Shown here piece by piece: positions 40,483-63,030 of a DNA stretch of 64,000 nt (position 1 is the first letter of the stretch; each line of letters opens with the position of its first letter). The stretch lies in IMG/VR virus record IMGVR_UViG_2061766007_000342, positions 193,909 to 257,908 of that record; one strand, given 5' to 3'. Origin of the DNA: a virus. Lineage: Duplodnaviria; Caudoviricetes. The notes under the pieces are model-generated. The model was given only the letters and a program-made list of their open reading frames with translations, was not told where the DNA came from and did no database searches. A program made the position numbers and the translations under genes.

Positions 40483-41148
40483 TTATACCTCCTTTGATGA
40501 CGACGCTCTCGGCCGTTGATGTATCATCTTAAATTCATATATCGCTTTACCGTTCGGGAATCGTTTATTCAAAGAACGATGGGATCGTATGATATCAACT
40601 CCGCTTGTGATGCGGAACATGTCATACTGCACAGCCGTCAACAGTTTCAACATCGTGCTTGTCAACGCATCATGTTGTTTGTCAATTGCTCGACAGATAT
40701 TGTCCAGCTGTGTATCCATGTTTTGGAATTTAGTTTCAAAGTCATCATCGCATTCTTCATATTCATCCATAATGGGTTGCACTTGTTTACGTGCAAATGC
40801 CACTTGAGATTGTAAGAACTGATATCGAGATATCATTGCGTGATAACGTTTCAATTGCGATTCCATAACCCCGTTCAGATCCATCAATTTAATTGATGCA
40901 AACGGTCGAGAGAATTTATTATCTTCATACAACACTGTGAGTGTCTTGATAATTTGAATATTATATGCCAATTCATTGATATGTGACATGGTATCATAAT
41001 CATCTTCATGAATTGTTTCCATCGTATCTAATCCATCAGTTATGATTTCTATCAATGCATGAACAGTGTTGACAAATCGTTGTGCTTCTTGTTGGTCTTG
41101 TTTCTTAATTGATATGACATCCCAAAATAAAAACTTCATCGGAAGCAC
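40483..41148 (-). CDS. Hypothetical helical protein
   Basis: 221-aa ORF within the operon. Confidence 0.55.
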   Translation of the reverse strand: MLPMKFLFWDVISIKKQDQQEAQRFVNTVHALIEIITDGLDTMETIHEDDYDTMSHINELAYNIQIIKTLTVLYEDNKFSRPFASIKLMDLNGVMESQLKRYHAMISRYQFLQSQVAFARKQVQPIMDEYEECDDDFETKFQNMDTQLDNICRAIDKQHDALTSTMLKLLTAVQYDMFRITSGVDIIRSHRSLNKRFPNGKAIYEFKMIHQRPRASSSKEV

Positions 41149-41163
41149 CTCGCGTTTTCGTTG

Positions 41164-42282
41164 TTATTGTTTGATTTTGCATACAGTCAATGTGACAGAA
41201 TTCTTCATTAAAGAATACATCATGCGATTCGTTAAAATGAATGCATCCGTTTGAACAAAGACCGTGTGATTGAATCGATGTAATGCCGTGGTATCAACAT
41301 CAATGATGTTTGCGGGCATTGCACGAATTTGATGTACATCACAACCATTGATTGCAAATACATTGGTTTCTGTGACATCTCGTTTCAATGTCAGATACAC
41401 CCATGTATTCGATTTAAAGATGCGGAATGGTTGACGGGTGTTGACATCATTCTGTTGTCCAGCAATGACAATATCACCTTCGGACAAATGATGTGATAAG
41501 TTGTTGTCATCCAAACCCATCATGATTCGTTTATCCGTGATGACGAACTTTTGGTTCTTACGAATGGGATTCATGGTTTGTTTAGAACGAATGATGTCGA
41601 TCAAAATGGTGTCATCGGTCACATACATTTGATTACCCAATGCACCAATGGAATTGCGACGGATCTTACCATGGTATACTCCACCCTTGGCAGATTTATT
41701 CAACATATCGGTTTCTACACCCCACACATGTCGGGCAGCACCGATAATTGTCGGGAGCTTATGGAAAGATCGGATGATAGTTGGTGTATCAACAAATACT
41801 TCACCGTGGATATCAAATGGATCAACAACAACGACAACTTTTCCATGAAAGTATTGCAGTATTGCATCACGAAAAATATGATCCATTAGGTGTGCATTAT
41901 GTAATACAATGACATCATACATTTTTAAGTATGCAGCATTCAAATAACGTAATGCGGGACGATTGACGGTGGGACGTTTCAATGAAAATGGATCAAATGT
42001 AAACACATCAGAATCCGTTTTATCCACCATCAAGTTACGATAATAGATATGATTCACCATTGCATGTTCGGGTTTCTTCATGTATACAATGTCGGGACAA
42101 CCATCTGCAATCAATACTTTGTCAAATGACGTATATGCAGTTGTTGCATCCAACACTGTACGAAGTAATGGTGAACCACAGATACCACCAACGGTGATAT
42201 GTGTATCATTATTGTTGAAAAAATCAATCAAGGCGTTTAACATGACATCTACTTCAACAATATTCGTTGGACGATCAAACAT
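41164..42282 (-). CDS. Degenerate RecD/Dda-like SF1 helicase (probable pseudo-ATPase)
   Basis: ITVGGICGS (Walker A lacking GKT), VVVVDPFD (motif III-like), and C-terminal HRFNHTVFV and MMYSLMKNS (motif V/VI-like). Confidence 0.45.
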   Translation of the reverse strand: MFDRPTNIVEVDVMLNALIDFFNNNDTHITVGGICGSPLLRTVLDATTAYTSFDKVLIADGCPDIVYMKKPEHAMVNHIYYRNLMVDKTDSDVFTFDPFSLKRPTVNRPALRYLNAAYLKMYDVIVLHNAHLMDHIFRDAILQYFHGKVVVVVDPFDIHGEVFVDTPTIIRSFHKLPTIIGAARHVWGVETDMLNKSAKGGVYHGKIRRNSIGALGNQMYVTDDTILIDIIRSKQTMNPIRKNQKFVITDKRIMMGLDDNNLSHHLSEGDIVIAGQQNDVNTRQPFRIFKSNTWVYLTLKRDVTETNVFAINGCDVHQIRAMPANIIDVDTTALHRFNHTVFVQTDAFILTNRMMYSLMKNSVTLTVCKIKQ

Positions 42283-42354: not shown

Positions 42355-43005
42355 TTACTTCATTGCGAAGATCTGATCGATCGACAGATCCGTGCCGATG
42401 ACATTATTGACATTGGAGATCTGTTCAACAAGCCAACGGAAATCGGAAGACGTCTCGCCAGTTACACGACGGATGTAGATATCACCATCCGGCTTACCAG
42501 TGCGAGGATCAGACAGCATCTCGGAGATGATTCTCTCAGGACGCAGATATACACGGAAATACTGACGACCATTCTCGGGTGAAGTTGCCAACGTCAGCTG
42601 TGCATTTCTGATGAGTTCGTCCAGCTTTGGACCGATAACACCGAGAGAGTTCAGATGACGTGCAGCTTCCGGAGTCAGCTGCTCGTAAGAGAAGTTCTTC
42701 GGATACATGAACGGCTCGAGCGCTTTCACAACGTCCTTGTCGAGTTCGTAACCGGTCTGGTTCTGCTGGAGAATGCGAGTTGCATAATCATCGGAAGCAA
42801 CATTGTTGTTGACAATCAGATCCTTGGCCTGGATGACAACACGCATACGTACATAAGAATGTGCAGCGTTGATACCAGTCCAACGTGTGAAGTCAGCATC
42901 GATGCGGAATCCGAGAACATCGTTCTCCAGATAGTGCATAATATCTCCAGCAGAGATATTATAGAACTTATTGCCGATCGGTTCGATATTTCCTTTGTTT
43001 GCCAT
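42355..43005 (-). CDS. Hypothetical protein, probably abundant
   Basis: RBS AAGGAGG and strongly biased codons. Confidence 0.7.
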   Translation of the reverse strand: MANKGNIEPIGNKFYNISAGDIMHYLENDVLGFRIDADFTRWTGINAAHSYVRMRVVIQAKDLIVNNNVASDDYATRILQQNQTGYELDKDVVKALEPFMYPKNFSYEQLTPEAARHLNSLGVIGPKLDELIRNAQLTLATSPENGRQYFRVYLRPERIISEMLSDPRTGKPDGDIYIRRVTGETSSDFRWLVEQISNVNNVIGTDLSIDQIFAMK

Positions 43006-43796: not shown

Positions 43797-43861
43797 TGTT
43801 TTGATATATGATGAACGGATTGCGTAATCAATAGTTCACACAATCCGTTGAATCATTTTGT

Positions 43862-44548
43862 TTACACATTACCATATGCGCATGTTGTTTCCACAACACG
43901 GGATGGGTCGGAACGCGGTACGAATACTTCAGAATGTACATGGGCGAAACATCGATTCAGTACATCATGAAGCTGGTTGCATTCTTCCATGGTCATATGA
44001 TGTACGGGTTCATATGTCGGTTGAAACTGGGCGGAGTTACAACCATATGCCGATTGATTGGGCATATATCCATATGCATTATTCATCACCGGTGTTGTGA
44101 ACATTGCGGGCGTTGCATAATTGTTCATATTCATCGGGATGACCGGATCATTACACGGTGGATAGATCGGATCAATACGATTGATATTGGGATAAATCAT
44201 CGTGTGATTCATCGGTGGGATCATCGGATTGTTTACCGGACGCATCGATACAACAGCCGGAGCACCAAATGTACACGGAGCACCACCCCATGTCCAATTT
44301 TCCGCATATGTTACATTGTTCGGATGTACGGGAACGGTCGGTGCCGGAACCATGCCATGTGCAGCGTTATACACATCCGCATGAGACGGTGCATTTGTGG
44401 TCATCATCATGCCACCACCACATCCACCCCCACAACCATTTTCTTCGGCATTGTTACGCTTTTTGATGTTCATAACAACAGCAACTACAATACCAGCAAT
44501 TGCTGCCAGTCCCATCACGGCATAACCAAACATTGAGATCGGATCCAT
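43862..44548 (-). CDS. N-terminally membrane-anchored Pro/Met/Asn-rich low-complexity protein
   Basis: Transmembrane segment at about residues 7-27, then KKR, GCGGGCGGGMMM and a P/M/N/Y-rich tail. RBS GGAGGTG. Confidence 0.7.
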   Translation of the reverse strand: MDPISMFGYAVMGLAAIAGIVVAVVMNIKKRNNAEENGCGGGCGGGMMMTTNAPSHADVYNAAHGMVPAPTVPVHPNNVTYAENWTWGGAPCTFGAPAVVSMRPVNNPMIPPMNHTMIYPNINRIDPIYPPCNDPVIPMNMNNYATPAMFTTPVMNNAYGYMPNQSAYGCNSAQFQPTYEPVHHMTMEECNQLHDVLNRCFAHVHSEVFVPRSDPSRVVETTCAYGNV

Positions 44549-44886
44549 TTTATTTCACCTCCAATATGTATGGATTCCAATATTCGAAATGAATTTTGAA
44601 TCATATATTCAACGATGACATTCCAAATCAATGGAATGAAATCACAATCAATATGTGCACATATGTTTGTTGTGATTTATTTTCATCGCAATATTCATTA
44701 TGACAACATGCATGGTTTGTTATCCATTCCGGACCACAACCGCAACCATTGCCAACGTATTGTATATGAATACGTTTATCGGTCTTCCATGGTATTACGC
44801 GGTATTACGTGGTTTTCCAAACATTTGTCGAACATGTAATTGGTACCCATTACATGAACGCACACATGCCGTTCATCCCAAAAAAG

Positions 44887-44914
44887 ATATAATTATTCAA
44901 AATAAAAATATTTT
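44887..44914 (-). promoter_or_regulatory. 28-bp motif, identical to 25178-25205; candidate promoter
   Basis: Exact repeat upstream of the low-complexity-protein block. Confidence 0.6.
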
Positions 44915-44970
44915 AAAAACCGACGGGTAAACCCCGTCGGTTTATGATATCATATAAGGAGTTGAAACAT

Positions 44971-46944
44971 ATGGCAGTATTTTTACCGGGGTATGGTCAA
45001 TTAAAAAGTGACAAAGAATCTTTTTTGACCAGTAACCCGATTAATTCCAATTATTCGCCACGGTTGTTTGGTGCACCACCACAATTAACCAGTTTGTGTG
45101 ATATGCGCACATTGTCATCCAAGAATGGACAACCGGGCGCAGTTGGTGATATGTATTTGAATAACATTTTAAAGAATGCACAAGTTGCCAACTTTTCCGT
45201 TGGTCGTGCATTGTTCACCGGTGGTTTCAATTCATTGGTTGCCATTGGTATGAATTTAGCGGCATATGCATATGCGTACAAGCATTATGGCATATCCGGT
45301 AAAAATCAAGAAACCGTTACTGCATCAAATGTATCCGATGACGCATTACATGATTTGACCGTCGCATTTAATGAACGTGCATTGGAATCCACATCATCAA
45401 CAACCACCGGCAATACCGTCACCGAAGATGACATCCAAGCCCAACAAGAATTGGATGCATTGATGAATGGTACCAATACCGAATCACAATATTCCACCAA
45501 TGGTTCATGGGTATCCATCATGGAAGAATTTGCGGAACGAACCACCGATTTAGTCAGTGACGAAATGAACAATGTCGATGAATCCACCGAAGAAGTGACA
45601 CCGTCCACAACCTATTCTGGTTTGGACGATATCTCCGCGGCATTGGGTGGAACATATAACAATTTATCCAATACCGGTTTGGAAGATGATGAATCATTGT
45701 CAATTGATATCGACAGTTTAGACTCCATCGTTGCCATCCTTGAGAACTTGGCTTCGGGTTTTAGTAATACAATACGTGAAACCGGAGCCACATTATCCGC
45801 ATCATTGTTAACCGGTTTATTGGTCAATCAACCATTTTACACATTTGAAGCCGATTGGAAGACGTACATCAACAATGTCAAAATGATGATCAACACCGCC
45901 GTTATTATGTTGGGTTTACAAAATGCATATGTCAGAATCGGTAATCAATACATGTGTGTTGGCAAATCGGCAACGTATACCGGTGGTGATGATGTTTGGA
46001 CGTTGTATCGATATATCACACCCGATGATGATATTGGTACACATACATCAATTGACAACATCAAGGGTGAATCTTCACAATATGTTTCATTTATGATTGA
46101 TCCATCGGGTGAATCGGAATCCTACACCAACACAACTTCTCCATCACAAATATATTCATCCGTCATCAATTCCGGTTCCGATATTGGTTCCGAAATTGCA
46201 TTCATCACGAATTCATCACAATCCGCGATCGATGATTCGGTAATCCAATTGGCGGGTGGTGCGGTCGATACAGCGAATCGCATACTTGGTGCATTGTCGG
46301 GTGGTGTTGGTAAATTCACCGCCGCAATTGCCGCGGGCATGGCACGTACATATACGGGTGATCATGCCATTTATCCCGAGATCTTTAAAGAACATTCATC
46401 CACACAAACGTACACAGTTCATATCAAGTTACGTGCATCACGTGGCGATCCATACACGTATTTGATGGATATATTGGTACCGTTGTTCCATATCATGGCA
46501 ATGGCTTTGCCAAAAATGTCCAAGAACTCCGCAGCATCGTATCAATATCCACCATTGATCCAATGTAATGTACCGGGTATGTGGGGAACACGTTTGGGTA
46601 TTATTGAATCTTTGTCAATCCAAAAAGCCCCCAATGGTGAAATGTCCGTATATGGATATCCATTGTCAATCAATGTTGATGTCATCATTAAAGATTTAAT
46701 GCATGCAATGGTTACCACACCAATGGATGCACCCGCATTGTTTTTGAACAATACTCCCATGTTTGATTATATTGCACAATGTACCGGCGTTGATAAGTAC
46801 CGTGTCAATTCAGCAGCACGTATCATCACCAAGATCGCATTAGCAGCATCCTTTTCAGAATCCACATTTTATAATATCGGCGAAGCAATGACATCGGATC
46901 TCACACATATGTACAACTCCGCCGTATCCATTGCAATTAAATGA
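44971..46944 (+). CDS. Virion structural protein (tube-initiator / baseplate, T4 gp48/gp54-like C-terminal domain)
   Basis: YQYPPLIQC...LGIIESLSIQK...GYPLSINVDVIIKDL. Start reassigned to 44971 behind AAGGAG. Confidence 0.6.
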   Translation: MAVFLPGYGQLKSDKESFLTSNPINSNYSPRLFGAPPQLTSLCDMRTLSSKNGQPGAVGDMYLNNILKNAQVANFSVGRALFTGGFNSLVAIGMNLAAYAYAYKHYGISGKNQETVTASNVSDDALHDLTVAFNERALESTSSTTTGNTVTEDDIQAQQELDALMNGTNTESQYSTNGSWVSIMEEFAERTTDLVSDEMNNVDESTEEVTPSTTYSGLDDISAALGGTYNNLSNTGLEDDESLSIDIDSLDSIVAILENLASGFSNTIRETGATLSASLLTGLLVNQPFYTFEADWKTYINNVKMMINTAVIMLGLQNAYVRIGNQYMCVGKSATYTGGDDVWTLYRYITPDDDIGTHTSIDNIKGESSQYVSFMIDPSGESESYTNTTSPSQIYSSVINSGSDIGSEIAFITNSSQSAIDDSVIQLAGGAVDTANRILGALSGGVGKFTAAIAAGMARTYTGDHAIYPEIFKEHSSTQTYTVHIKLRASRGDPYTYLMDILVPLFHIMAMALPKMSKNSAASYQYPPLIQCNVPGMWGTRLGIIESLSIQKAPNGEMSVYGYPLSINVDVIIKDLMHAMVTTPMDAPALFLNNTPMFDYIAQCTGVDKYRVNSAARIITKIALAASFSESTFYNIGEAMTSDLTHMYNSAVSIAIK

Positions 46945-46952
46945 ATAAAAAA

Positions 46953-46983
46953 TATACATGGGGGCTTGATGCCCCCATGTATA
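46953..46983. terminator. Bidirectional terminator hairpin
   Basis: TATACATGGGGGC-ttgat-GCCCCCATGTATA between convergent genes. Confidence 0.7.
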
Positions 46984-46999
46984 CCACATCAAATCATTA

Positions 47000-47563
47000 T
47001 CACATGAACATATTCATCGCAATCAATCCAAATGTATTTGGGTCAAATGTTGTCATCATACAATCCATTCCGATTGCATCCACCATTGGTACAATACATT
47101 CACCATATTCACCAATCAATTTCAATCCAACATAACATTTACCAGATTCATCAACCCATTTATCCGGTTCAATGCACATCCCACCAGCACGTAAACACTT
47201 TTCTTGACGATATATCTCTAATGCTTTTTCATTTACTTGAAACTCATCTTCGTTCATATTTGGATATAATTCGTCCATGTGTTTACGTATCTCATCAACC
47301 GTACGATGTAAAATGTTTACGAACAACCAATATTTTCCACCGGGTATGAATATCCGATTTCGTTCAAAACCTTCGGAGATACTGACACTCCAACCAATGG
47401 AATTAACCGATTTGGTACCATTTGCTGTTGTTTTCACCGTTGGATATTCAACTCCATCACCATCATATTTGTACACAAATGAAACACGTAATGCTTTGTT
47501 CACAGTCCCACGATATAACGAATATGACAATCTACCGTTACTGTTTACTCCATTCCCATCCAT
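47000..47563 (-). CDS. Hypothetical protein
   Basis: 187-aa ORF, beta-rich with interspersed helices. Confidence 0.55.
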   Translation of the reverse strand: MDGNGVNSNGRLSYSLYRGTVNKALRVSFVYKYDGDGVEYPTVKTTANGTKSVNSIGWSVSISEGFERNRIFIPGGKYWLFVNILHRTVDEIRKHMDELYPNMNEDEFQVNEKALEIYRQEKCLRAGGMCIEPDKWVDESGKCYVGLKLIGEYGECIVPMVDAIGMDCMMTTFDPNTFGLIAMNMFM

Positions 47564-47564
47564 T

Positions 47565-48290
47565 TTACATAATCACTTCCAATTCTTCATCATATTCATT
47601 ATTATGATAACTCATTACGTGATTTAAACGAGCGATAGCACTCTCTTGCTCATTATCATCACAATATCCCATAATGTAATTTAATGCGTCTTCATATTGT
47701 TCTCGTGTCATTCTAGGTATTTTATCAGAAGCTTTCTTATTCTCATTATTATCATTATTTTCAATATTAGTGATTTCATTATCATTCAAACATAATGTCA
47801 TTTTAATGTATTTAATAAAATCACAAATGTCTTCTTTACCATGTCCAAGTAATGTTCCATTCTTATAACTCACGGGATTAATCATATAATGAACATGGAA
47901 ATTACCATTTCTATCTTTATCATCTTCCACTTCATGTATTGCATAAACACATTGCCTTTTCTTTAATATGAAATATTTTGCAATTAAATCAGCTTTTATA
48001 ATAGCTTCATCAATCCCATTAACATGATTTTTATCAAATGAAACAACATAATGAATTAGACTTTTACATGATTTTCTATTAAAGAATTCTTTAATATCAA
48101 TAATACTCCAATAACATTTCTTAAGCATATTCATGTTATCTTCATCATTAAGATTAACACCATAAGCATTTAAATATCTAAAGTCATTTCTAATATTACA
48201 ATCTTTATCATATTTCATGTATTTAATTAAATTCCAACAGTATGTATCATTTACAATACTTTTATTCGTAATTAATTTAATAATGACCAT
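47565..48290 (-). CDS. MOB-P-type HUH relaxase domain protein (short)
   Basis: Motif I LIKYM, motif II HYVVSF, motif III AIHE...HVHYMINPV. Very AT-rich. Confidence 0.75.
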   Translation of the reverse strand: MVIIKLITNKSIVNDTYCWNLIKYMKYDKDCNIRNDFRYLNAYGVNLNDEDNMNMLKKCYWSIIDIKEFFNRKSCKSLIHYVVSFDKNHVNGIDEAIIKADLIAKYFILKKRQCVYAIHEVEDDKDRNGNFHVHYMINPVSYKNGTLLGHGKEDICDFIKYIKMTLCLNDNEITNIENNDNNENKKASDKIPRMTREQYEDALNYIMGYCDDNEQESAIARLNHVMSYHNNEYDEELEVIM

Positions 48291-48589
48291 AACCTCTCTA
48301 TCTCCTTATTAACATAATCATTTAAGTCATCATTACCATGTTCTTTAGCAATCTTCTTTAATGTTTCACATAAATTAGTCATTTCGCATATAAATTCAGG
48401 ATTAACAATTCTACATTTGCTATGTAATAAAATATATTCAGAAACAGTCATATCTTCTTCAATAGCTCTTTTCTTAATAAATTCATTATCTTTAGGAGAT
48501 ATTCTAAAGATAACATTCATACTCTTCACTTCATTAGGATCTGTTAAATACTTCTTTTTCATAATAAACCTCCAATGCATATAATTCAT
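48272..48589 (-). CDS. mobC: MobC-like ribbon-helix-helix relaxosome accessory protein
   Basis: VIFRISPKDNEFIKKRA...MTVSEYI RHH pattern; overlaps the relaxase start. Confidence 0.7.
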   Translation of the reverse strand: MNYMHWRFIMKKKYLTDPNEVKSMNVIFRISPKDNEFIKKRAIEEDMTVSEYILLHSKCRIVNPEFICEMTNLCETLKKIAKEHGNDDLNDYVNKEIERLWSLLN

Positions 48590-48630
48590 ATTTTTCTTTA
48601 AACAAAAAGATGTTTAAGAGTAGTTGGTAT

Positions 48631-48740
48631 GTATTCCCCTTTACAGGGAATACAACAGTAATGACTTAATGGATTAATTTAATAATGATTATATCATTCT
48701 AAAAAACGTGTGCCCTTCGGGCCCAGGTGCAGGTTAAATA
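48631..48740. promoter_or_regulatory. Candidate oriT
   Basis: Inverted repeat GTATTCCC..GGGAATAC, GCCC-ttc-GGGC hairpin, and minus-strand TAACCTGC resembling the IncP nic site TATCCTG^C, all upstream of mobC. Confidence 0.3.
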
Positions 48741-48785
48741 TAAGTGTATTTACATAAATTAAGTATTTACATTATGATTACATTA

Positions 48786-48817
48786 TTACATGTGGGGGAT
48801 ATATCCCCCACATGTAA
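48786..48817. terminator. Perfect palindrome downstream of the RNAP beta-N gene
   Basis: TTACATGTGGGGGATATATCCCCCACATGTAA. Confidence 0.6.
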
Positions 48818-48835
48818 CGATTATTCATTACATCA

Positions 48836-50927
48836 TTAGAATGGAACAGTACCATCTGTGTTATCATTATTCATAACAGCAGTATCATCTGTGGCTTCAG
48901 TATCTTCTTCGACATATCCACCCTCAGGTACCTTACAATCAATATCAATATATACAGAACAAGCAATCTTATCCAATATTGCATTATATTCTTCTATTGT
49001 ATTAGCATTGAATCGTAATGCACGTTGTGGAAAGTTATCTTCAATGAACTTATACAGTTCAAACTTTACATTTGGATATTTATTGATATTGACATTGGTA
49101 ATATCGGATATATCTCCCCATGGAGAAATGATACCACTCTGTCCAACATCCTTAGTGGATTCTACAAGATCTTGTTTACCAATCATACTTGGATTCATCT
49201 GTTTATTGATAAATGTAATCTTATGCTTATCCATACGACCAAGCGCATTAGGCGATGTGTTCACATAGTTCGCAACACTATGCAGTTCTCTTATGAACTT
49301 CTTTCACTTTTCGTGAAATGTCCAGACTATATCTTCAGATGCATATCTCACGACATTCATCTGTCTCTCGTTTCCCATGCCCGTCATTTGCTTACGGGGG
49401 TAAAATTAGTCGTTGAGCCTGTATCTTTACATTAGTTGATCATAAGATACTTGGCTGCGGGTTGACCATATATCTTTCACATTTTTACTATACCTTTGCC
49501 ATTATGCATTGCCATGTATATGTCACCATATACATTTAGTAGTGAAAGCTCTTAGGCATCCATCATGATTGACAGATCGAAACTTTTCCGGTGTTTCGCT
49601 TTTCCGCATATATGAGAGATCAGGCCACCGTTTGACCTTTCTTGGTGTAGGAATATAAATGGTAATAGTCCAAGTCATTTGCGAAATCAACTGCATGAAC
49701 GGTACCAAGTTCATACATCTTACGACGAATACAATCCGGTGAGAACTTCACCAATGGCTGAATATCCGTCATCTTGATCATACAACCAAACTTGAACATC
49801 TTCTTGAGTTTATCCGATACCAGTGCTGTGATGATGGTTGAGATGACTTCATTCTTTCGAAGTCGTTTATTCTCAAATGAGAAGAAGTTCATATCATCAA
49901 ACTCCGTTTGAAGTACATACTTCAACAACGAAATCATGACACGTTTATCAATCTCAGGAATTGGTAATACTTCCGCAGAAATGGTATCCAACATACGTGC
50001 AACATACATCTGATGACATGCACCACGATGTTCCACATTGGGCTCATAATATGACAATTCGTAGATCCACCATTTGGGATCACGTAATTGTTCAATGGTG
50101 GACGGACGATGTTTCTCAATCAGCTTCATTGCCATGACAAGAATGTTACGAACATATTCAAACTTACGTAATCCCTTCTTGTACGCTTTGATGTAAATGT
50201 TATCATTGTTTGGGATTGGTTGAAAATACTCATATTCATCTTTGTCACAATCATAAATGCGGTCACAGAACTGTAAGATTGGGAATACTTCGAGATATGA
50301 CAATGGTGCTGGTACATGCATGAAACATGACAAAATTGGTTCCATGGTTGTGAAGATCTTTACCATGCCAACTTTGGAAGTGACAACATAACCATCAACG
50401 GAAACGGCTGTTTCTTCTTCATAACGAATGACAACCGGAAGAAGTGACTTGATAACAAATGAATTTTCACCATTTGGATATAACAGCTTATCCACAAGCT
50501 GGTATTCGGAATAACGGAGATTGTCCAAGAAGTAACGACCCTTATCATCATCAATCGGAACATGTAACACATTGTGTACAACTTCACGTTCCAGACGTTT
50601 GTTCTTGTCACGTGCTTCGATGTACACATCAAATTCCAATACACCGATACGATTGTCACCGACCGTTTTTGTTTTCAACTTGACGCCGGTCTCACGGCGT
50701 CTTGTTTGAATCTGATCCGGTGACGGATGTGGGTTCCATTTCCAATTACAAATCTCCAAATATGGTGCATTCTCTGCACCCTTGATCGGATACAATCTCA
50801 ATAGATTGATGACTTGTAATCCCGAGATGGCTTTCATGACGTAAAACCACAACGGTTGATCTTTACCCATATCAACCGTGGTTTTTTCCAAGGGATTGTC
50901 CATGTTTTGAATACACATGTCCAGCAT
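48836..50927 (-). CDS. RNA polymerase beta subunit, N-terminal half (probably non-virion RNAP), spliced: exon 1 50927-49635, exon 2 49252-48836, 569 aa
   Basis: VP..DKGRYFLD..Y..YQLVDK and ENKRLR. The spliced junction YTKKG|PNALG and NPSMIG..DL..S..DVGQSG match beta fork-loop/region D motifs. Confidence 0.82.
49253..49634 (-). mobile_element. Group I intron (382 nt, no endonuclease ORF)
   Basis: 5' exon ends in U within P1 (AGGU|CA..UGGCCU). Q-like GCAGCCAAG, R-like UCAACGACUA, S-like AAGAUAUAGUCU, terminal omega-G. Splicing joins the exons in frame. Confidence 0.9.
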
Positions 50928-51048: not shown

Positions 51049-54000
51049 ATGCCATTATACCGTCAATATCCATTGGTAACACCCGATTCCATACGTGCAA
51101 AGTTGCATATTGATCGAAAGCTATATGGAACCTATGTGGATCGATCAACAATGCATACACATACCAATGGTACGAAATACATTGGTACATTGGAGAACTG
51201 GGGATCGGAGTTACTTGCGGAAGCACACAAGTTGAAAATGAAGTATACTCCATTTAATATATTCCATTATTCTGATGCAGCACAACGATACTTCGATTTT
51301 CATTATGGAACAGAATTGAATTCTGTGTATCAACCAAATGTGATATTGGGTTGTGTGAACATGGACAACGTTCCACAAAACCGGTGTTACATTCAATTCC
51401 ACAGTTGTAAACGTGATGTGATATTACGTTCAACATCTTATTCTGATCCTGATTTGTCATTGATGACATATTACAAGACGTCATCTCCACCAAACTTTGT
51501 ATCGATCACACCAATGGGATCGGTGACATCAATGCCAATCAAAGTATATGATGACTCCATTCCCGCTGGTGATGATAATAGTCATGATACCATGTATTAT
51601 TTCAACTTAACTGCGACAAATGATACGTTAACAATTGATTCGGAATATCGCCGTAATTTGATTGATCCCGACTCTGTGGAATCATTGGAATCTGGATGGC
51701 GATTCAATACGTTGGATTTACAACCATGGATGGACGGACAACCATTGGTTTGGTTATCCATTCCAACGGTTAAAACAATTGAAACTGGATCATTCGTTGG
51801 CAATTATGATCAATATAACAATCCATTGATGACCGTCGGTATTGATGGTCACAACAACCAAGGATTATATTCCAATGTTTATCCGGACAATTTACCACCC
51901 ATGCCTGGATCATATGCATATGATTCACCGTGGATGTTAAAAGTGTATGCAAAATATGATGATTACTCGGGTGGAAATATGTCGAGTAATCGCTCCAAAG
52001 AATTACGTAAAATCACATTTTGTTTTTATGATGATACCCCAGCATTTCAAAATATCATATTCACACAAGATATCACATGGGACACCGATAAGTTTCATGT
52101 ATATTTAAATACGAATGCAAATCGATTATCAAAAACATATTGGGTATATCACAAACCAGTTGAAGGTGATTCGGATTATGATGGTATAACTTATCATAAT
52201 CCAGCATATCTGTTTGCAACAACACCGATGGGTGAAATCGATTATCGTAAAGCGTGCCCTGCAAAGATTAATAATAAATACAATCCATTGTTCATTGTCA
52301 AAACGGAATATCATTACAATGAAAATCGATACTTGACACCACGTGCACAAACGGGTGTTCATATTGATTTTACATCCGATTATTCTGATCATTGTGTGGA
52401 TAAAAAGAATGGTACAATCTATGACATGGGAGAATTCGATGGATTACCAAATTATTATAAAACAAAGAATGCTCGATATGTGAAACGTGGTCGTGTATCA
52501 TTATATACATTACGAGATTGGATTACAACCGAAACACAACGTCCAATGAAACGTCAATCGGCGGGATTGTTAATTGATTCGGGATTACAATCGTTTGTAT
52601 ACAATATGGATTCCACATATTTAGAGTCAATGATCCATTACAAGTATTCTCCGAATCGTACGTATTATACCAATGGCACACCGGAAACAATTCGAAATGT
52701 ATTATCGGATATTTGTTATGTGGGTGGAAACTCCATGGTGGATGTTCATAAACAAAAGACACCATACCAAATGATTTATCATGGTGATCGATTCTTTTCC
52801 GTTCGTATGTTGGCGGATTTGGGTGATGATGAATATGGTCGTGTTTATGTAATTTCAAACGATCCCGCGGAATATGATAACAACGGCAATACCATTTATA
52901 CGAAACCCGAACGTACATTGGCACGTATTTGTGATATACCAACGGATTATCGTCAATTAACACATATATCTGGATTGGTATCATCAGTAATAACCGATCC
53001 ATATTATGTACGTACCGAATGTTGTTATGGTGATGGAGCCATTCATTCGGTTAATGGTAATGATTTACAACGCGTATGGAATACCACGTCCAATGAAAAT
53101 ATCATGGTACATAATAACCAAACGCGTGTATTCGATAAAGACATTAACATGAATGCAGATTACGGTTCTGCATGGATGGACGTACATTATACTCGATGGG
53201 ATAATCGTAATGCATTCTTGGAAATGACAAATGCAATGGCGACCAATGGTGTATTTTCGAAATACACATGGCGTGTTGCAGATGGTGGTTCTGGATATAA
53301 AGTCGGTGCTGAATTGAAAGACTATGTTGGTGGCAAACCATTTGAAGCATACATACAACGCATTGATGGTAATGGTGGTGTCATTGTAACACGTGAAACT
53401 GAAAATACAAAAACGGTGAAAATGAATCGTGCAAACTTCAATGGACGAATTGCAACTTACACACCATCGTTTTCAGATGGACCAATGCAATCGGATGAAT
53501 ATGCTTCATTCGCATTGGAGATTGAACAAAATGCATGGAATGATTTACAACCGAAAAACAATGGTTCGGTGAATGGTTGTTATGCATTTAAATTCAATGC
53601 ATATGATCAATTAACCATTTGGAAGTACAATCCCGTGGATCGTTGGTGGTATGAGAATTGTGTATTAACTGGAGAAGCCATTGTGGACACTGTGTACAAT
53701 CATGATTTGGACATTGCGAAATATTCCACACCAGCCGTCATCATGGCAAAAATGTTAAATCCACAATATCAGTTGAATGGTTATGATGATGCAACATATA
53801 CCGATGGAATTCCATATTCTACATCGGAGATTTATGACGTATCCGGTTCTTCGAGTGATGTCATTATTGATAATGGATACAACTTACAAGATGCATTACA
53901 TGTCATTGTCAATGACTCGGGTGCATACAGCATGAAGAGTTATCAAATGATTCCGATGAATGCATCATCAAAAGCAATTTCATTACCAAAGTCACATGAA

Positions 54001-54861
54001 GCACCCTTGTACAATGACATCCCGAGAATGTGTACATTATTATTCAATAGAATGAATGATGGCTTTCCGGATATGGGTTATGTGCCAAAACAACCAAATG
54101 TGTATGTGTATAATCCATATAAAACATATCATCGTCAATATAAACAAGATTCTTCCGATGTTGTTCATTGCATCAAAGAAACACAAATTTCATTCATTTA
54201 TTATCCATCTATGACGGATAATGGATATACCATTGGTGACATATATCGATATACCGGACATGAGTTATCAAATAACCTGAAGACCCGATACAATGAATTG
54301 ATCGGTATGTCACGTGGTGATTTATACAATATTGCAATTACATTAAATCCCACATTGAATGGTGAAACGATTGATGAGAACCCGGTTCAATATGCTGAAT
54401 TTAATGGTGTTCCCTATTCCAAAGAACGTTTAATCCAATATATCATGTCATTTGATATCATGAATGAGAATGTTGAGAATGGACATGTGTATCGTCCAAC
54501 AATGACTTCCGGTAGTGTTGAGAAGTTGCGTAACGCTGGCGAGTTGGTTATGGAAGAAATCGGCGGACAAGTTGTGCCAGTTGGTGATCAACCATTGGGT
54601 GATATTGTACCAGTTACTTCACGTGATATTCATTGTGAACTGAAATTGGGTGAGTCGTCATCAACTGTTCGTGCAAAACCATTGTATGTATTCCGTTTGA
54701 GTGATGATGAACGTATTGAATCCTTTGATGGATTCCACATGAAGGATCAATACTCTAATCACGATATCTCTGAGAAGACATTGTTAATATACCAAAACAC
54801 ATTGTATGTGTATGACAAAAACGAAGACACATGGAAACATGTCGTACGTAGACATGTATAA
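51049..54861 (+). CDS. Large virion / tail-appendage protein, paralog 1
   Basis: 1270 aa, rich in Y/N/D/G. Shares motifs with the next gene. Confidence 0.55.
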   Translation: MPLYRQYPLVTPDSIRAKLHIDRKLYGTYVDRSTMHTHTNGTKYIGTLENWGSELLAEAHKLKMKYTPFNIFHYSDAAQRYFDFHYGTELNSVYQPNVILGCVNMDNVPQNRCYIQFHSCKRDVILRSTSYSDPDLSLMTYYKTSSPPNFVSITPMGSVTSMPIKVYDDSIPAGDDNSHDTMYYFNLTATNDTLTIDSEYRRNLIDPDSVESLESGWRFNTLDLQPWMDGQPLVWLSIPTVKTIETGSFVGNYDQYNNPLMTVGIDGHNNQGLYSNVYPDNLPPMPGSYAYDSPWMLKVYAKYDDYSGGNMSSNRSKELRKITFCFYDDTPAFQNIIFTQDITWDTDKFHVYLNTNANRLSKTYWVYHKPVEGDSDYDGITYHNPAYLFATTPMGEIDYRKACPAKINNKYNPLFIVKTEYHYNENRYLTPRAQTGVHIDFTSDYSDHCVDKKNGTIYDMGEFDGLPNYYKTKNARYVKRGRVSLYTLRDWITTETQRPMKRQSAGLLIDSGLQSFVYNMDSTYLESMIHYKYSPNRTYYTNGTPETIRNVLSDICYVGGNSMVDVHKQKTPYQMIYHGDRFFSVRMLADLGDDEYGRVYVISNDPAEYDNNGNTIYTKPERTLARICDIPTDYRQLTHISGLVSSVITDPYYVRTECCYGDGAIHSVNGNDLQRVWNTTSNENIMVHNNQTRVFDKDINMNADYGSAWMDVHYTRWDNRNAFLEMTNAMATNGVFSKYTWRVADGGSGYKVGAELKDYVGGKPFEAYIQRIDGNGGVIVTRETENTKTVKMNRANFNGRIATYTPSFSDGPMQSDEYASFALEIEQNAWNDLQPKNNGSVNGCYAFKFNAYDQLTIWKYNPVDRWWYENCVLTGEAIVDTVYNHDLDIAKYSTPAVIMAKMLNPQYQLNGYDDATYTDGIPYSTSEIYDVSGSSSDVIIDNGYNLQDALHVIVNDSGAYSMKSYQMIPMNASSKAISLPKSHEAPLYNDIPRMCTLLFNRMNDGFPDMGYVPKQPNVYVYNPYKTYHRQYKQDSSDVVHCIKETQISFIYYPSMTDNGYTIGDIYRYTGHELSNNLKTRYNELIGMSRGDLYNIAITLNPTLNGETIDENPVQYAEFNGVPYSKERLIQYIMSFDIMNENVENGHVYRPTMTSGSVEKLRNAGELVMEEIGGQVVPVGDQPLGDIVPVTSRDIHCELKLGESSSTVRAKPLYVFRLSDDERIESFDGFHMKDQYSNHDISEKTLLIYQNTLYVYDKNEDTWKHVVRRHV

Positions 54862-54915
54862 TTCATCATATGGGGATTGTTATAACAATCCCCATTATCA
54901 TATAACAAGAGGAGT

Positions 54916-57900
54916 GTGATTTTGTTGAAAACCATCAAACATTATGTCGGTCCCAACTCCATTGGGTTTATGTTGGAGCAAGAACGTAAGCATTGGTTGT
55001 TGAAGACTCACAAACAAAAATATTTATCGGATCCAAATACAGGTGATACCTATATTGGTCGTGTGGATAACTTGGGATCAGACATTGTGATTGAATCTCG
55101 TAAATCCGACGAAGTGTTCAATCAATTATCGTATATTAAATATGATGACAAGTTCTCACGTATATTCCAAACCGAACAGTCTGGATTAACGTATAATTCA
55201 TCAATGAATGGATTGGTATTTGCACGTGTGATATCAACCAATTATCCGAAATCTGCAAATGTAAATCGTCATTATCGTATTCATTTCCGTAATGCGGAAA
55301 CGGTGTTCATTCCATTTGGTGGATCTAATGCATCGGATGATGTATACGCATACAAATGGATCAAAACATCAACTCCACCTGTGATCAAGTTAATGAATGA
55401 TTCTGGTACATATATCGAAGAAGTGTCGTTAACATTTGCAACGGTTGACAAATATGATTTGTTGAATACGGAACCATCAGATTGGGATACAAATTATTTC
55501 GATTATTATATCAAAACTGCAACGGGTTATCAACCCATTCCCAATACATATGCCAATCCCCCGGAGTTTAAACCGAATTCTTATTATGCTAAGACGGAAA
55601 CATCTCCAACGAATTGTGTGTATTATTATCCGTTGGATGAAGCGTTACGTCCGTTCCATATCACAGCAATGACAACGACGGAGTGGTATACGGAAGGAAT
55701 CATCAATGATGACCAGATTGGTTTACCTGCATTTTGGTTTACATGTGATGAAACAAATGTTGGTCCGAATATTACAATCAATAATCCCAACGGTAATACC
55801 ACAATGAATTTGTGGTGTATTGGTAATGAAGGAAATGCGTCCAAATATCGTTCACATGTGTATATTGGTATTGATGGACATCATGACGCAACACCACATC
55901 GCACACCAACCGATGAAACGTATGTGCATGTCACTCCATTGAGAGGTGTGTTCAATGGTAATGATTCCGACTTCAATGTTCCATTAAATCCATTACATAT
56001 TAAAATGGACGATTTGGATTTGGACATGACGTACAACGGAACCAATACGAAGTTTTACATGACCAATATTGATGCATGGGAGTATTTGTCATCGCGTGAA
56101 TATCGTATCAAAGTCAGTGCATTTGATGGGAACTGTTATGCATATAATCGAAATCCATTAATGCCATTGCTTAATATTCATTTTGATGAATCAATTTCAT
56201 TTGGTAATAAAACAAGTGACTATGGATATGTGGGTATTCGTGGTGGATCTGGTAACATTGTATCTGATTTGTATCCCAAATATCCGTATGACTTAAACAA
56301 GTTCGATGGATTACCCGATCATGTGCGGAATCCAAACCCCGAAGATCCACAACAACATATGGCTGTGTATGCAGTACACAATACACCTGGATCAACAACA
56401 TCGGATCCAATGTCACGTCAAACTGCTGCGATATTGCTGGATCCGGGTCGTACACAACATCCCGAGAATGAACTTCCATACGATTTCGCGTTACCTGAGA
56501 TTGATCCGAACTCTGAATGGTATGGTCAGAGAGACATGGCTTATCCAGCACCATATGAGAATGATGTATTCTTCATTGAAATATTAAACGGTGGATATGG
56601 TCTGATAACTCCAGGTGATATGACTACCGGTCAAGGTGGTTATACTTACGACTATAATTACACTTTATATGATGAGAATAAACAACGCATTATGTGCATA
56701 ACGGCTCCTGCCAGAAGCGAATATCGTTATATTTGGGATCCTGATACGCAATCATTTGAAAAACATGAGATTTTGTATTATGGTGGTAATTACGATAATA
56801 ATGGTGGCATGCAACATTTCGGATACCTGTCAGAATTTGCTTGGGAGAATCCGAAGAATACCAAAACAGATGGAACTGGATTTGAATATAAAGATGTAAC
56901 ATATGTCACAAGTGATAGTGAAGAAGGTGCGCAAGAATATACCCATGGTGACATTGGTTTGCGATTCCGCATTTATCGTAACTTGGATTCCAGTGAAGCA
57001 AACTATACACGTGGTCGTGTATATATCTTGTCGAATGATCCGATCTCATATGAGAACAACATCACATCACAACATCCTAAGCCAGCACGTACCGCGGCAC
57101 GTATTTGTGATATTCCAACATCCGTTGCACAGTTGAGTGGTACGAAGAATGTATCTCCAACGTACGTTGTTGACCAAGATTATGTTCGTACCGAAGCATC
57201 CTATTCCGAAGCGGATCGTAACCGTTTGTACAATGTGAATTCTTCACGTTGGGTACGTCCGTGTCACTTGGGAACGAACGGTTTACCAATTGAACACGAT
57301 AACGATTTCGTATTCAATTCGGAATCGCAATTGAATTCCATCGATTTGATCAATCATAATGATTTCCGTTATTTGGAGAATCTGGTACCAATGGTGGATC
57401 CATCTAATGTGTCCATTTCCGAGATTGTAAATGCTGGTGAAGGATATGCAGTCAATGACTTTGGATATATTTACATTGGTGGCTTTGGGTTTGAATATCA
57501 TGTCACTGAAGTAGATCGTTCCGGACGTGTCAAGACAGCATATTTAGCATCACCTGAATTGGATAATCATCGTTTCATTAACTTATCCAATTTCAATATG
57601 CTTGAAGAAGGTGCATCACCATATACAGACGTATATGGAACTTCTCCACGTACAGGTGGTGGTTCTGGTTTACAAGTGCGATTGATGATTGCGGATTATG
57701 CTTCCATCCAAACATACAAGGGTGAACTATACGAAGACTTATTTGCATTGATTCGTGAATCGGACGGCTTATGGTTGTACAAGTATGACATCGATCGAAC
57801 AGATACACATACACCAAAAACGGGTGAATGGGTGAAGGATGTTCATATTGCACAATTTGAAATGAATGATCCGAATGTAAAATTCCCATCCACTGCAGAT

Positions 57901-58944
57901 GCATTCATGGCTTCGATCTTACCCAGATCCAAAAAAGAATATTGTTGTTTGTATGAAAACCATATGGGTTTACAAGCATTGGATGTGATTTCAACTGCAT
58001 CCTTTGTACAAATTGTATCTGGTACAAATTGTACACCAATTGTGAATCCAGTTGGTAACAATGTCAATGGATTTGATTTGTGTAAATGGTATTGTGATGG
58101 ATTAACCAAATATACCGTAAAGGAAATGTCAATCGATGGTGTATTGGATGCTGTTTCCAAGAAACGTACCATTCGTAGTGATTGTTACATTGCATGGAAA
58201 CCTGTGGATCCAACTGATCCATCCAATATGGATGTAACCGTTGGTGTGATATATCGTTCATTTAACAACACCCGTAGTGATGATAATGTCACCACATTAC
58301 CAGCAAACCATTTACAATACCAAAACTATGTCAATTCCAATGCAAACACAACCGTTGTATGGGATGTTGACAACATCGGTCCGATGGTGTGGGTGTTCAA
58401 TCCAAAGTATCGTCAACATGAAACATATCGTTATGATCATGAACGGAATCAATTGGTGGTTGAACGTGAAACCATGGATTGGTCCAAGGTAGAAATCCAT
58501 ACCAGTAATGTTACCATAGAAGAGTCGTTTGTTGATGACAATGGTAAGTTGAAATACAACATCATTACCAACAATCCATTCCATTTCCATGCCAATGAAC
58601 ATATTGATCCGAATATATTGTATGATCAACCCGAGTTCTTTACGGTTGCAACCATTGGTTCATCCATTGCAGTAATGTCCAATAATCCAACAGGTGGTTG
58701 GGAATTGGTAATGCCACGTGTACATGGTTTTGCATTTGAACGTGAAAGTGGTGGACTGACACAATCGTATACACCAACTGAAATGAACATCATTCATGAT
58801 ACGAATGTTGGATATGAAACACGTGTGTACGATGTCAATACGAAACAAGATGTTTCCATGTCAACTGTTATCTTTGAAGATTCTGCAAATGGAGTTTCCA
58901 TTCGTGTATTCAACTCGGTAACAGGTCAATGGGAATATGTATAA
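54916..58944 (+). CDS. Large virion / tail-appendage protein, paralog 2
   Basis: 1342 aa. GRVY(V/I)xSNDP..Y.NN....KP.RT.ARICDIPT is shared with paralog 1. Confidence 0.55.
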   Translation: MILLKTIKHYVGPNSIGFMLEQERKHWLLKTHKQKYLSDPNTGDTYIGRVDNLGSDIVIESRKSDEVFNQLSYIKYDDKFSRIFQTEQSGLTYNSSMNGLVFARVISTNYPKSANVNRHYRIHFRNAETVFIPFGGSNASDDVYAYKWIKTSTPPVIKLMNDSGTYIEEVSLTFATVDKYDLLNTEPSDWDTNYFDYYIKTATGYQPIPNTYANPPEFKPNSYYAKTETSPTNCVYYYPLDEALRPFHITAMTTTEWYTEGIINDDQIGLPAFWFTCDETNVGPNITINNPNGNTTMNLWCIGNEGNASKYRSHVYIGIDGHHDATPHRTPTDETYVHVTPLRGVFNGNDSDFNVPLNPLHIKMDDLDLDMTYNGTNTKFYMTNIDAWEYLSSREYRIKVSAFDGNCYAYNRNPLMPLLNIHFDESISFGNKTSDYGYVGIRGGSGNIVSDLYPKYPYDLNKFDGLPDHVRNPNPEDPQQHMAVYAVHNTPGSTTSDPMSRQTAAILLDPGRTQHPENELPYDFALPEIDPNSEWYGQRDMAYPAPYENDVFFIEILNGGYGLITPGDMTTGQGGYTYDYNYTLYDENKQRIMCITAPARSEYRYIWDPDTQSFEKHEILYYGGNYDNNGGMQHFGYLSEFAWENPKNTKTDGTGFEYKDVTYVTSDSEEGAQEYTHGDIGLRFRIYRNLDSSEANYTRGRVYILSNDPISYENNITSQHPKPARTAARICDIPTSVAQLSGTKNVSPTYVVDQDYVRTEASYSEADRNRLYNVNSSRWVRPCHLGTNGLPIEHDNDFVFNSESQLNSIDLINHNDFRYLENLVPMVDPSNVSISEIVNAGEGYAVNDFGYIYIGGFGFEYHVTEVDRSGRVKTAYLASPELDNHRFINLSNFNMLEEGASPYTDVYGTSPRTGGGSGLQVRLMIADYASIQTYKGELYEDLFALIRESDGLWLYKYDIDRTDTHTPKTGEWVKDVHIAQFEMNDPNVKFPSTADAFMASILPRSKKEYCCLYENHMGLQALDVISTASFVQIVSGTNCTPIVNPVGNNVNGFDLCKWYCDGLTKYTVKEMSIDGVLDAVSKKRTIRSDCYIAWKPVDPTDPSNMDVTVGVIYRSFNNTRSDDNVTTLPANHLQYQNYVNSNANTTVVWDVDNIGPMVWVFNPKYRQHETYRYDHERNQLVVERETMDWSKVEIHTSNVTIEESFVDDNGKLKYNIITNNPFHFHANEHIDPNILYDQPEFFTVATIGSSIAVMSNNPTGGWELVMPRVHGFAFERESGGLTQSYTPTEMNIIHDTNVGYETRVYDVNTKQDVSMSTVIFEDSANGVSIRVFNSVTGQWEYV

Positions 58945-61049: not shown

Positions 61050-62018
61050 TTATTTTATTTTTAATATACGATGGATTTCCATTTTATCTTTGGATACACC
61101 ATAGTCTTTGTCAATGGTATTCTGGTAAACATAGATATGTTTGAACAATTGTCTCATACCATATGGAACACGAATGTTGTTATTATCCACATCGGAATCT
61201 TTGAAGATATGAATATGCACGGAGTTACCAAATATTCCCATCTTTAACATATGATCAATACCCGCTTTATAGTCACTTCCGAGCGTTGCAATATACATTG
61301 CATTGGGAATCGGATAGTGATAATATAAACCAATGACATCCATGATTCCTTCGGCGATGATAATGTTAATCGGTTCATGTGTATCCATACCCACACGCAT
61401 GGTATATATCCCACGTCCATGAACACGTTTCGTTTTATATCGCAACCAACGATATTCCGTGTCATCATTGTTACATCTTCCAATGATATTACCATTGTTC
61501 AATTGAAACCAATGTCTCCAACATATGACATTATGATTGTATTCATCATTACCAAAGAATTGTTTTACATATGCATGTGGATCACCAACATATCGGAACG
61601 TTTGTAAATCGGACAATGTTGGTTGTACACCAACTCGGGAATTGATATATGACACAATTCCCGTGATGTTGTTTGATTCATCACATGACACTTGGTTCAA
61701 TTTAATTGAAGCAGCATCATTGGATTCAATCCGTTTATGATACTTCACATTTGTTGGTGTATCAATATCATGATCCAATCCATATGCTTTCAAGAATTCT
61801 TTCCCAACAACACCTGATGAATTGCATTTAAAGCAATGCCATAATGGTGGTTCTTCATTGTTTAAACAAATCTTGACATAACAGTGGTATTTGTTATCGC
61901 CACATCTCGGACATGTTTGACAACGATATTGGTCACGATTTGTTGGCGTTTGTTTGAAGATACCACTACTGATCAAACTTTCTTTGAATGTTTGTAATGT
62001 CACATCAGTCCACTCCAA
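61050..62018 (-). CDS. DNA primase (Zn finger plus Toprim)
   Basis: CPRCGD...CFKC, AEGIMD, DSD, KDYG. Confidence 0.85.
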   Translation of the reverse strand: MEWTDVTLQTFKESLISSGIFKQTPTNRDQYRCQTCPRCGDNKYHCYVKICLNNEEPPLWHCFKCNSSGVVGKEFLKAYGLDHDIDTPTNVKYHKRIESNDAASIKLNQVSCDESNNITGIVSYINSRVGVQPTLSDLQTFRYVGDPHAYVKQFFGNDEYNHNVICWRHWFQLNNGNIIGRCNNDDTEYRWLRYKTKRVHGRGIYTMRVGMDTHEPINIIIAEGIMDVIGLYYHYPIPNAMYIATLGSDYKAGIDHMLKMGIFGNSVHIHIFKDSDVDNNNIRVPYGMRQLFKHIYVYQNTIDKDYGVSKDKMEIHRILKIK

Positions 62019-62741: not shown

Positions 62742-63030
62742 AAAACATTCCTCCTTGATGTGGGTTATTCAAACCACTTATTTTACCCGCGCGAAAAGTG
62801 TACAGGTAATACTGTTTGTGTGTAATGGTTTGTTTGTGTATATGATATCTCTTATGTCTTTTACTATTTATTCTTATTAATTATTCTATATATAATATAT
62901 AATATACGTTATTCTCATCCAACTAACGTCAATTAAACATGATATGTATCAAATTTACAAATAATAGAAACGTTGTATGTATATGATTGGAATGTATTGT
63001 AATAAGTATAAGAATGGAGGTATATGTGTT

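Follow-up and report, generated by a model that had tools for sequence, protein, structure and literature searches.

AG/CT-poor patches downstream of MobC and mini-relaxase cassettes in a jumbo phage genome

In this study we describe deep local depletion of the dinucleotides AG and CT in a 64,000-nucleotide stretch of viral DNA (the window), the last 64 kb of the 257.9-kb record IMGVR_UViG_2061766007_000342, and its association with small cassettes encoding a MobC-like protein and a mini relaxase. The genome carries exactly three such cassettes (numbered 1 to 3), at genome 21-904 (+), genome 57198-58096 (-) and window 47565-48562 (-); positions below are those of the window unless the genome is named. 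The depletion has two layers, a mild background that runs through the whole phage family and deep patches that are specific to this lineage. Judging from sequence comparisons, it is reasonably probable that resident cassettes left the deep patches as their footprint, through a cis-acting relaxase that would cut at nic-like sites and erode the motif locally.

Depletion of AG and CT beside the cassettes

A first-pass annotation of this DNA had reported, from a hand count, a strong depletion with no AG and a single CT at 44581-44880. Our direct count confirms it: this mostly non-coding interval holds 0 AG, 1 CT, 13 GA and 19 TC where about 35 AG+CT are expected, and 43860-47560 holds 120 AG+CT against about 447 (AG 68 of 205; CT 52 of 242). 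The core of the purged zone (43860-47563) lies just 3' of the relaxase gene. Here the dinucleotide ratio rho for AG/CT is 0.18-0.31 per kb, and YCTG (Y, pyrimidine) occurs 5 times against 46 expected, compared with 64 against 47 in the orthologous interval of the cassette-less relative L012. Only the adjacent pair is affected, since gapped words of the form A-N(1-4)-G stay at about 1.0. The depletion persists under control for amino acids and codons. The three main genes hold 116 AG+CT, against 280+-12 (z -14) for the same proteins recoded with backbone codon usage, and their codon junctions hold 58 against 134+-8 in shuffles of their own codons; all synonymous codons containing AG or CT are reduced. 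The earlier proposal that some context-specific pressure acts in addition to codon usage is supported. The largest gene of the zone, a conserved gene of about 660 codons from the phiKZ family (44944-46944, +), has 0.44 of the AG+CT of its orthologue in G001, the closest complete relative, and is the lowest among 54 lineages; some of its distant homologues are annotated as virion structural proteins. The conserved phage gene of 187 codons that comes first 3' of the relaxase (47000-47563, -) stands at 0.60 of its orthologue, and a low-complexity gene of 228 codons (43862-44548, -) has a rho of 0.26 against 0.92 in the G001 homologue.

Relative to G001, AG+CT content is about 1.0 across most of the genome and drops to 0.18-0.6 in a few places. 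The first genes downstream of the three cassettes have 0.38, 0.19 and 0.60 of the AG+CT of their orthologues, against a genome median of 0.95, and of the eight genes with the strongest depletion against their G001 orthologues, five follow a cassette on its downstream side (permutation p ~0.001, post hoc). Pooled over the downstream flanks, rho is 0.20, 0.33, 0.41, 0.48, 0.73 and 0.77 in successive kilobases, and 0.74 in the first upstream kilobase; the depletion fades over about 4 kb and follows the orientation of the relaxase. The cassette's own genes are richer in AG/CT than the flank. Across the 54 lineages, the observed/expected ratio of YCTG in the 44944 gene is 0.13 and 0.54 in the two cassette bearers against 1.29+-0.27 (minimum 0.63) in the other 52, and its rho is 0.24 and 0.42 against 0.73+-0.13 (minimum 0.42). 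As the two bearers are sister lineages they represent one event, and the replicates are the three sites. We confirm the patchiness noted in the first-pass annotation, together with the exemption of the relaxase island and highly expressed genes. The island was listed there merely as an exempt region, whereas our analysis makes it the likeliest source of the patch.

The relaxase gene (47565-48290, -) matches PF03432 with 27.7 bits (cut-off 24.6) and, weakly, an NCBIfam MOBP model. Five alleles of 25-44% identity share invariant Y17/Y24, H80, H119, H132 and H134, so that the motif I tyrosine, the motif II histidine and the HxH-type histidine triad are retained across swapped alleles, and the top matches of a fold search are relaxases only (E 0.007-0.1). 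The protein falls far below the full-length TraI/MobA(P) equivalog (NF041893, 16-24 bits against a cut-off of 250) and its C-terminal part is absent. No HNH, GIY-YIG, LAGLIDADG or related nuclease domain is present in the cassette, its domain being that of an HUH relaxase, and the genome's Pfam scans returned neither a coupling protein nor a type IV secretion system. The start of the relaxase gene is overlapped by a MobC/NikA-like ribbon-helix-helix gene with a NikA-like match (48272-48562, -). Upstream of it lies an AT-rich region resembling an origin of transfer (oriT; 48563-48815, -), with a terminator-type hairpin at about 48787-48814 and inverted repeats. The predicted nic, CCTG^C (48729-48733, -), has the context TTTAACCTG^C at 48733-48729, with the nick position taken from the MOBP consensus (C/T)ATCCTG(C/T) (PMC3772185). 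An unbiased word count over 30 non-redundant cassettes of the family, from bacterial genomes and contigs, ranks CCTG first among 4-mers upstream of mobC (25 against 11.5). It stands in the mobC-strand context GAGCGAAGCGACG-CCTG^Y, with CCTG^Y conserved in 25 of the 30; of the MOBP consensus only the CCTG^Y part is retained. The upstream and oriT region of the window's other cassette (63343-64000, +), with a nic-like CCTG^T at 63463, continues at genome 21-904, and the contig is evidently circularly permuted. Pairs of MobC and a relaxase of 160-180 residues with GAGCGAAGCGACG-CCTG^Y are widespread in chromosomes of gut Firmicutes (L114-L169, Ruminococcus and Oscillospiraceae; L112), sometimes several per genome or in tandem. 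Relaxase searches of IMG/VR with single proteins and a phage-type alignment gave no matches, nor was there a relaxase match among GenBank phages.

At its fixed site the cassette is optional, being absent from G001, L088 and 50 further lineages. At the window site a 97%-identical strain has the same patch and a relaxase of 34% identity, a 74%-identical relative has a third allele (44%) and a shallower patch within about 4 kb, and the cassette-less L088 and L012 have no patch. Cassette 1 has also been exchanged between strains (38% identity). The cassette was not found in 16-17 related phage records, which therefore offer no independent long-resident replicate. Allele swaps breaking exactly at nic were considered and rejected, as at cassette 1 the homologous flank runs on beyond nic and at cassette 3 the homology is patchy. 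An insertion of about 380 bp (49253-49636), probably an intron, lies in the gene upstream of the window cassette; it is absent from L085, L083 and L088, and in the latter two the gene forms one open reading frame (ORF) of 554-569 codons.

Motif context, strand and ongoing loss

Normalised to orthologues, YCTG in the patches is reduced to 7 of 71 and RCTG, YCTH and RCTH to 0.37-0.41; on the strand opposite the relaxase CCTG occurs 0 times against 18 and TCTG 3 times against 46. Genome-wide, the observed/expected ratio of YCTG is 0.93-0.99, compared with about 0.1 in the patches. A conditional-logit model with amino acids and backbone codon bias held fixed gives a core CT penalty of -0.97, to which a 5' pyrimidine adds -0.72+-0.15 and a 3' G adds -0.60+-0.16 (likelihood-ratio test 38, 2 degrees of freedom), and CCTG and TCTG reach -3.0 and -2.9. 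Virion genes at genome 166-177 kb show no such context effect (likelihood-ratio test 0.4). The depletion had been described as strand-symmetric. Both strands are indeed hit, but not equally: the log-odds penalty on CT is -1.84 on the strand opposite the relaxase and -1.15 on the other, whereas sorting by coding strand gives -1.46 and -1.47.

The pressure alters protein sequence and not synonymous sites alone. A lysine, glutamate or glutamine followed by valine, alanine, aspartate, glutamate or glycine (a G-starting codon) makes an AG unavoidable. In SbcD, encoded behind cassette 2, such pairs occur 2 times against 16 expected, the lowest among 120 homologues (family median ratio 0.87), and over five patch genes the ratio is 0.59 compared with 0.88 in G001. 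A candidate recombinant inside the gene body (P0009) was rejected.

The loss is ongoing. We scaled synonymous differences to strains of 90-98% identity by a matched neutral rate. Within the cassette patches AG/CT gains run at 0.51 (0.33-0.77) and losses at 2.6 (1.7-3.8) of that rate, against 1.09 and 1.14 in the backbone. The effect extends to transversions and to transitions of either direction, with every mutational route into AG/CT suppressed. If AG/CT were hypermutable, gains would stay at 1, and the range of substitutions hit excludes a single deamination route; the process acts like selection or biased conversion and not like hypermutation. Synonymous divergence is slightly higher in the patches (0.074 against 0.054).

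The same data bear on two other explanations. The patches could be tracts co-converted with the cassette from a donor that was AG/CT-poor genome-wide, as polar tracts decaying with distance are typical of homing co-conversion (PMC2790892). However, YCTG never falls below 0.63 in 52 candidate donor lineages, the patch gene ranks the relatives as the backbone does (73% to L082, 67% to G001), the cassette genes are richer in AG/CT than the flank, and gains are still being suppressed among current strains. The polymorphism test largely refutes such an import, which we regard as very unlikely. The options offered by the first-pass annotation, namely a DarT-type defence at TCT/TNTC, a base modification at AG or CT and deamination in CT context, are even jointly highly improbable. 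TCT is depleted (0.29) and domains of a dCMP deaminase and a dGTP diphosphohydrolase are present, but none of the three accounts for a kilobase-scale polarity beside cassettes. Avoidance of TNTC is contradicted by TATC, TGTC and TTTC at 1.05, 0.98 and 1.05 of the backbone. CT deamination fails because TT is not enriched and all routes into AG/CT are suppressed. A modified base finds no support, with no methylase or hypermodification family in the Pfam matches of about 200 ORFs and with ThyX present. The altered nucleotide pools suggested earlier lose their force too, since both enzymes also occur in patch-free relatives.

Family-wide background and other genome features

Outside the patches a milder bias is shared with relatives. 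Genome rho(AG) is 0.66 in this phage and 0.65-0.76 in three complete relatives, and per-gene rho values correlate across orthologues. Genes with a rho of about 1 favour AAG (0.85), CAG (0.92) and CTN (0.88), whereas low-rho genes favour phage-tRNA codons (TTG, TTA, AAA, GAA, CAA, ACA, TCA and CCA). Nine phage tRNA genes were seen (L001 18208-18372, L002 13652-15922, L003 669-2483), and the eight non-Met ones all decode AG/CT-free codons. Much of the background, and the exempt genes, can be put down to expression and phage tRNAs, the junction component only in part; across each of the four genomes AG/CT at codon junctions carries a penalty (-0.34 to -0.79 log-odds). That expression-linked codon usage and phage tRNAs explain everything, as the codon preferences and the eight tRNAs would invite one to think, is about as improbable as the modification and deamination options. 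For the deep patches it is refuted, because non-coding DNA and codon junctions are depleted, the relatives' orthologues are not, and the effect flips with the orientation of the cassette rather than that of the gene.

The background ranks CTA>CTT>CTC and spares CTG (G004/G003 ratio 1.17 for CCTG and about 0.6 for NCTA), and CTA is the rarest trinucleotide genome-wide (0.25). This ranking matters for the possibility that a cassette is a mere local hotspot of nicks, recombination or single-stranded DNA, where a family-wide process, such as a host nuclease or some bias in repair or conversion, is amplified. Such a process would fit the drop of every CT context beyond YCTG, a family background whose rho spans 0.42 to 1.06 without cassettes, the genome-wide junction penalty and the slightly raised synonymous divergence in the patches. 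Against it, the family bias spares CTG while the bias in the patches is strongest at YCTG, and we consider it unlikely.

Avoidance of primase start sites (template CTG or CTA, primer pppAG) where a displaced strand stays single-stranded or priming does harm, for example near a cassette-borne origin, is less likely still. DnaG primases start at CTA/TTA in Firmicutes or at CTG in Proteobacteria (PMC2978363), which together with the penalty on +1G and the rarity of CTA favours this idea. The DnaG-type primase gene itself (61050-62018, -) is AG/CT-poor in relatives too (0.29 in G001, 0.44 in G004), and an AT-rich motif of a four-copy repeat, a possible origin, is also present at cassettes 1 and 2. 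However, RCTG (0.37) falls no further than other CT and only YCTG is lower (0.10), TTA falls just to 0.76, and CTA carries no extra logit penalty; no patch accompanies the repeat copy at genome 189.6 kb, and the motif is missing from cassette 3. Primase starts fit the ranking of the background better than the patches, and may bear on the former. That the cassettes are causally involved at all, be it through relaxase cutting, as a hotspot, through priming or by import, is very likely.

The four-copy repeat is intergenic and about 200 bp long (window 62750-62990, -; genome 3.3, 116.3 and 189.6 kb). It consists of TTGACG, AT-rich AAAGAT-type repeats and then TT(T/G)CGCG..TAAAATAAGGG; G001 has two weak copies, the 3' motif is also present upstream of cassettes 1 and 2, and the repeat is a candidate origin, promoter or protein-binding site. 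As a cause of the patches it was rejected, given the patch-free copy at 189.6 kb and a strand bias at 110-116 kb that points the wrong way.

The first-pass annotation had also named 51-59 kb and 61-62.7 kb as depleted. Both are low in AG/CT, mostly as part of the separate layer shared with relatives and not as a local patch. The two large genes at 51049-58944 (+) are AG/CT-low in four of four genomes, with family background, a modest lineage excess and no YCTG-specific signal. In three of four genomes the primase gene is poor in AG/CT, and in G001, which has no cassette, it is the orthologue with the deepest depletion (core -1.40). Nearer the cassette, an outer and weaker zone (40483-42282, -) stands at 0.60-0.66 of its orthologues, and the exempt gene at 42355-43005 (-), with host-type AAG/CAG/CTN codons, has a rho of 0.93 and is presumably highly expressed. 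A separate bias affects whole lineages of the family: in L246, L215, L206 and G004, AG/CT is low throughout (rho 0.42-0.56) and YCTG is normal. Genes for a reverse transcriptase of the diversity-generating retroelement type and a TnpB-like protein (genome 122310-124599) have AG/CT at 0.32-0.40 and no YCTG-specific signal.

On its gene set of a split multi-subunit RNA polymerase, terminase, divergent DnaB, GroEL, tubulin and SbcCD, the genome is placed with phiKZ-related jumbo phages and is related to AR9/PBS1; the top cultured matches of an RNA polymerase subunit are Bacillus AR9/PBS1 and Staphylococcus jumbo phages (24-27% identity). Endolysin domains (GH25/CW_7/LysM) and the relaxase homologues in Ruminococcus/Oscillospiraceae suggest a Firmicute host of gut or rumen. 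ThyX, dCMP deaminase and NrdD are encoded, which makes ordinary thymine DNA likely, in contrast to AR9; no modification family of an AR9/PBS1-type or uracil-DNA pathway appears in the Pfam matches, most ORFs being without any match. A Tpt1/KptA RNA 2'-phosphotransferase and a TROVE-domain protein are encoded at genome 1-39 kb. The NAD ligase has 637 residues here and 1089 in one strain (L170 10001-13270), with a faint NUMOD4 match, the longer form likely reflecting an intein or endonuclease insertion. The ScaI site AGTACT occurs 0 times against 42 expected genome-wide, CCGCTC/GAGCGG once against 14, and GGCC stands at 0.46; these deficits are ordinary restriction-site avoidance.

Proposed mechanism and comparison with known systems

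For erosion by the cassette's own relaxase we propose the following course. MobC would load the relaxase at oriT, and the relaxase would nick CCTG^Y on the cassette-coding strand. Strand displacement would pass through the cassette into 1.5-5 kb of flank and expose single strands, where the relaxase, having a short recognition core, would also cut nic-like sites, YCTG best and any CT weakly. Such off-target cuts would break or truncate the molecule, or would convert site-bearing to site-less alleles in co-infection heteroduplexes. In log units, the effective strength of this erosion would be about 1 for a CT and about 3 for a YCTG, declining with distance. Cuts on the template strand might produce double-strand breaks and may therefore purge that strand harder; alternatively, mismatch bubbles in heteroduplexes might be cut and converted. 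The erosion may proceed by viability selection or by biased gene conversion, either being compatible with the course above. The cassette itself most likely spreads among co-infecting phages as a homing-like selfish element.

Several observations weigh against this mechanism. Downstream loss is absent at about 40 homologous cassettes from chromosomes of Ruminococcus type and from other contigs (AG 0.98 upstream, 0.97 downstream; YCTG 1.4-1.7). The jumbo phage L110, of the same family, carries a cassette with no patch (YCTG 1.29); this cassette, of bacterial type, adjoins the tape-measure gene (L110 9741-10492). Its bacterial-type oriT may point to a recent arrival, a post hoc argument. Two patches of similar depth, at genome 133.5-136 and 179-181 kb, have no cassette in two strains; they carry the +1G and -1C signature in weaker form. 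Polarity is not absolute, since genes upstream of the cassettes, though low in relatives too, in some cases carry a weaker excess of depletion (0.66-0.88). The predicted nick lies on the strand that is hit less hard, and CT sites other than YCTG fall to about 40%, implying a very relaxed enzyme or a second process, while the MOBP relaxases tested so far require ATCCTG (PMC3772185). Furthermore, the three sites belong to one phage clade only, and the patch limits were set after inspection of the data. A copy of the cassette-3 nic context with one mismatch, at genome 179062, faces the 179-181 kb patch and may be a relic of a former cassette.

It might be possible, and we put this forward tentatively as something rather less than probable, that the cassettes form an undescribed homing-like selfish class in jumbo phages, with an HUH relaxase in place of a hydrolytic nuclease. 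Relaxed nicking would then drive a polar, ongoing, kilobase-scale erosion of nic-like words in essential genes, altering proteins and also marking former sites of the element, a prokaryotic counterpart of the erosion of hotspot motifs. A dinucleotide anomaly would be tied to a specific enzyme and site, which is seldom possible for compositional biases. If this holds true, a two-gene selfish element locally rewrites the genes of its host phage, relaxases act in competition between lytic phages outside conjugation, and the in vivo off-target spectrum of an enzyme can be read from genome composition, with 16 contexts ranked. Patches of local composition would also be no proof of foreign origin.

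A literature search of incomplete coverage gave no paper that treats MOBP mini-relaxase cassettes as elements exchanged among jumbo phages, and nothing relevant on relaxase homing in these phages, on AG/CT depletion in phages or on loss of nic-like words near oriT. Relaxase-like genes in phages have been noted before, of the CloDF13 type, a different family, in a translocation operon (PMC3357382). Compared with relaxosomes of a MOBP relaxase and a MobC or ribbon-helix-helix protein (RP4 TraI/TraJ, VirD2, pC221 MobA/MobC), the cassettes share PF03432, the catalytic tyrosine and histidine triad, the overlapping ribbon-helix-helix gene and the upstream CCTG^Y matching the MOBP consensus (PMC3772185). 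They differ in a relaxase of just 160-240 residues, in the lack of a coupling protein and type IV secretion system, in residing in a lytic-type jumbo phage, in a nic oriented to displace the cassette first, and in the AT of ATCCTG, which is not conserved; for the relaxosomes we found no report of flanking motif loss. With free-standing nicking homing endonucleases (T4 MobE, I-HmuI/II) they have in common that they are optional, intergenic, adjoin core genes and vary among strains. Donors of these endonucleases are protected by polymorphism of the flank and co-conversion decays with distance (PMC2790892), which resembles the immunity of the donor and the decay of the effect here. The endonucleases are HNH enzymes with one long target and leave one altered site, unlike an HUH transesterase with a separate ribbon-helix-helix protein and an internal oriT beside kilobases of 2-4 bp motif loss; homing of the cassettes is putative.

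Three other systems offer analogies. In phage restriction-site avoidance, nuclease targets are lost in a selection-like manner on both strands, at synonymous and non-synonymous positions. The patches differ in being local and polar instead of genome-wide, in their non-palindromic, graded motif and in a putative nuclease that is encoded by the phage beside the purged DNA. At PRDM9 hotspots a protein that directs cutting erodes its own target by biased gene conversion, with fast-diverging alleles at one locus. The cassette resembles this by analogy only, as a putative cutter eroding its own target whose alleles diverge at one locus; it resides in a prokaryotic virus, its effect is limited to cis, and the eroded core is common to all alleles. 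Rolling-circle HUH transposons (IS91, ISCR, Helitron) combine an HUH enzyme with one-ended displacement into the flank and short target words. The cassettes differ from them in belonging to the relaxase family and not to the Y2 transposases, and in occupying three fixed sites across strains instead of dispersed copies. In conclusion, the parts are of known kinds, and their combination appears to be undescribed.

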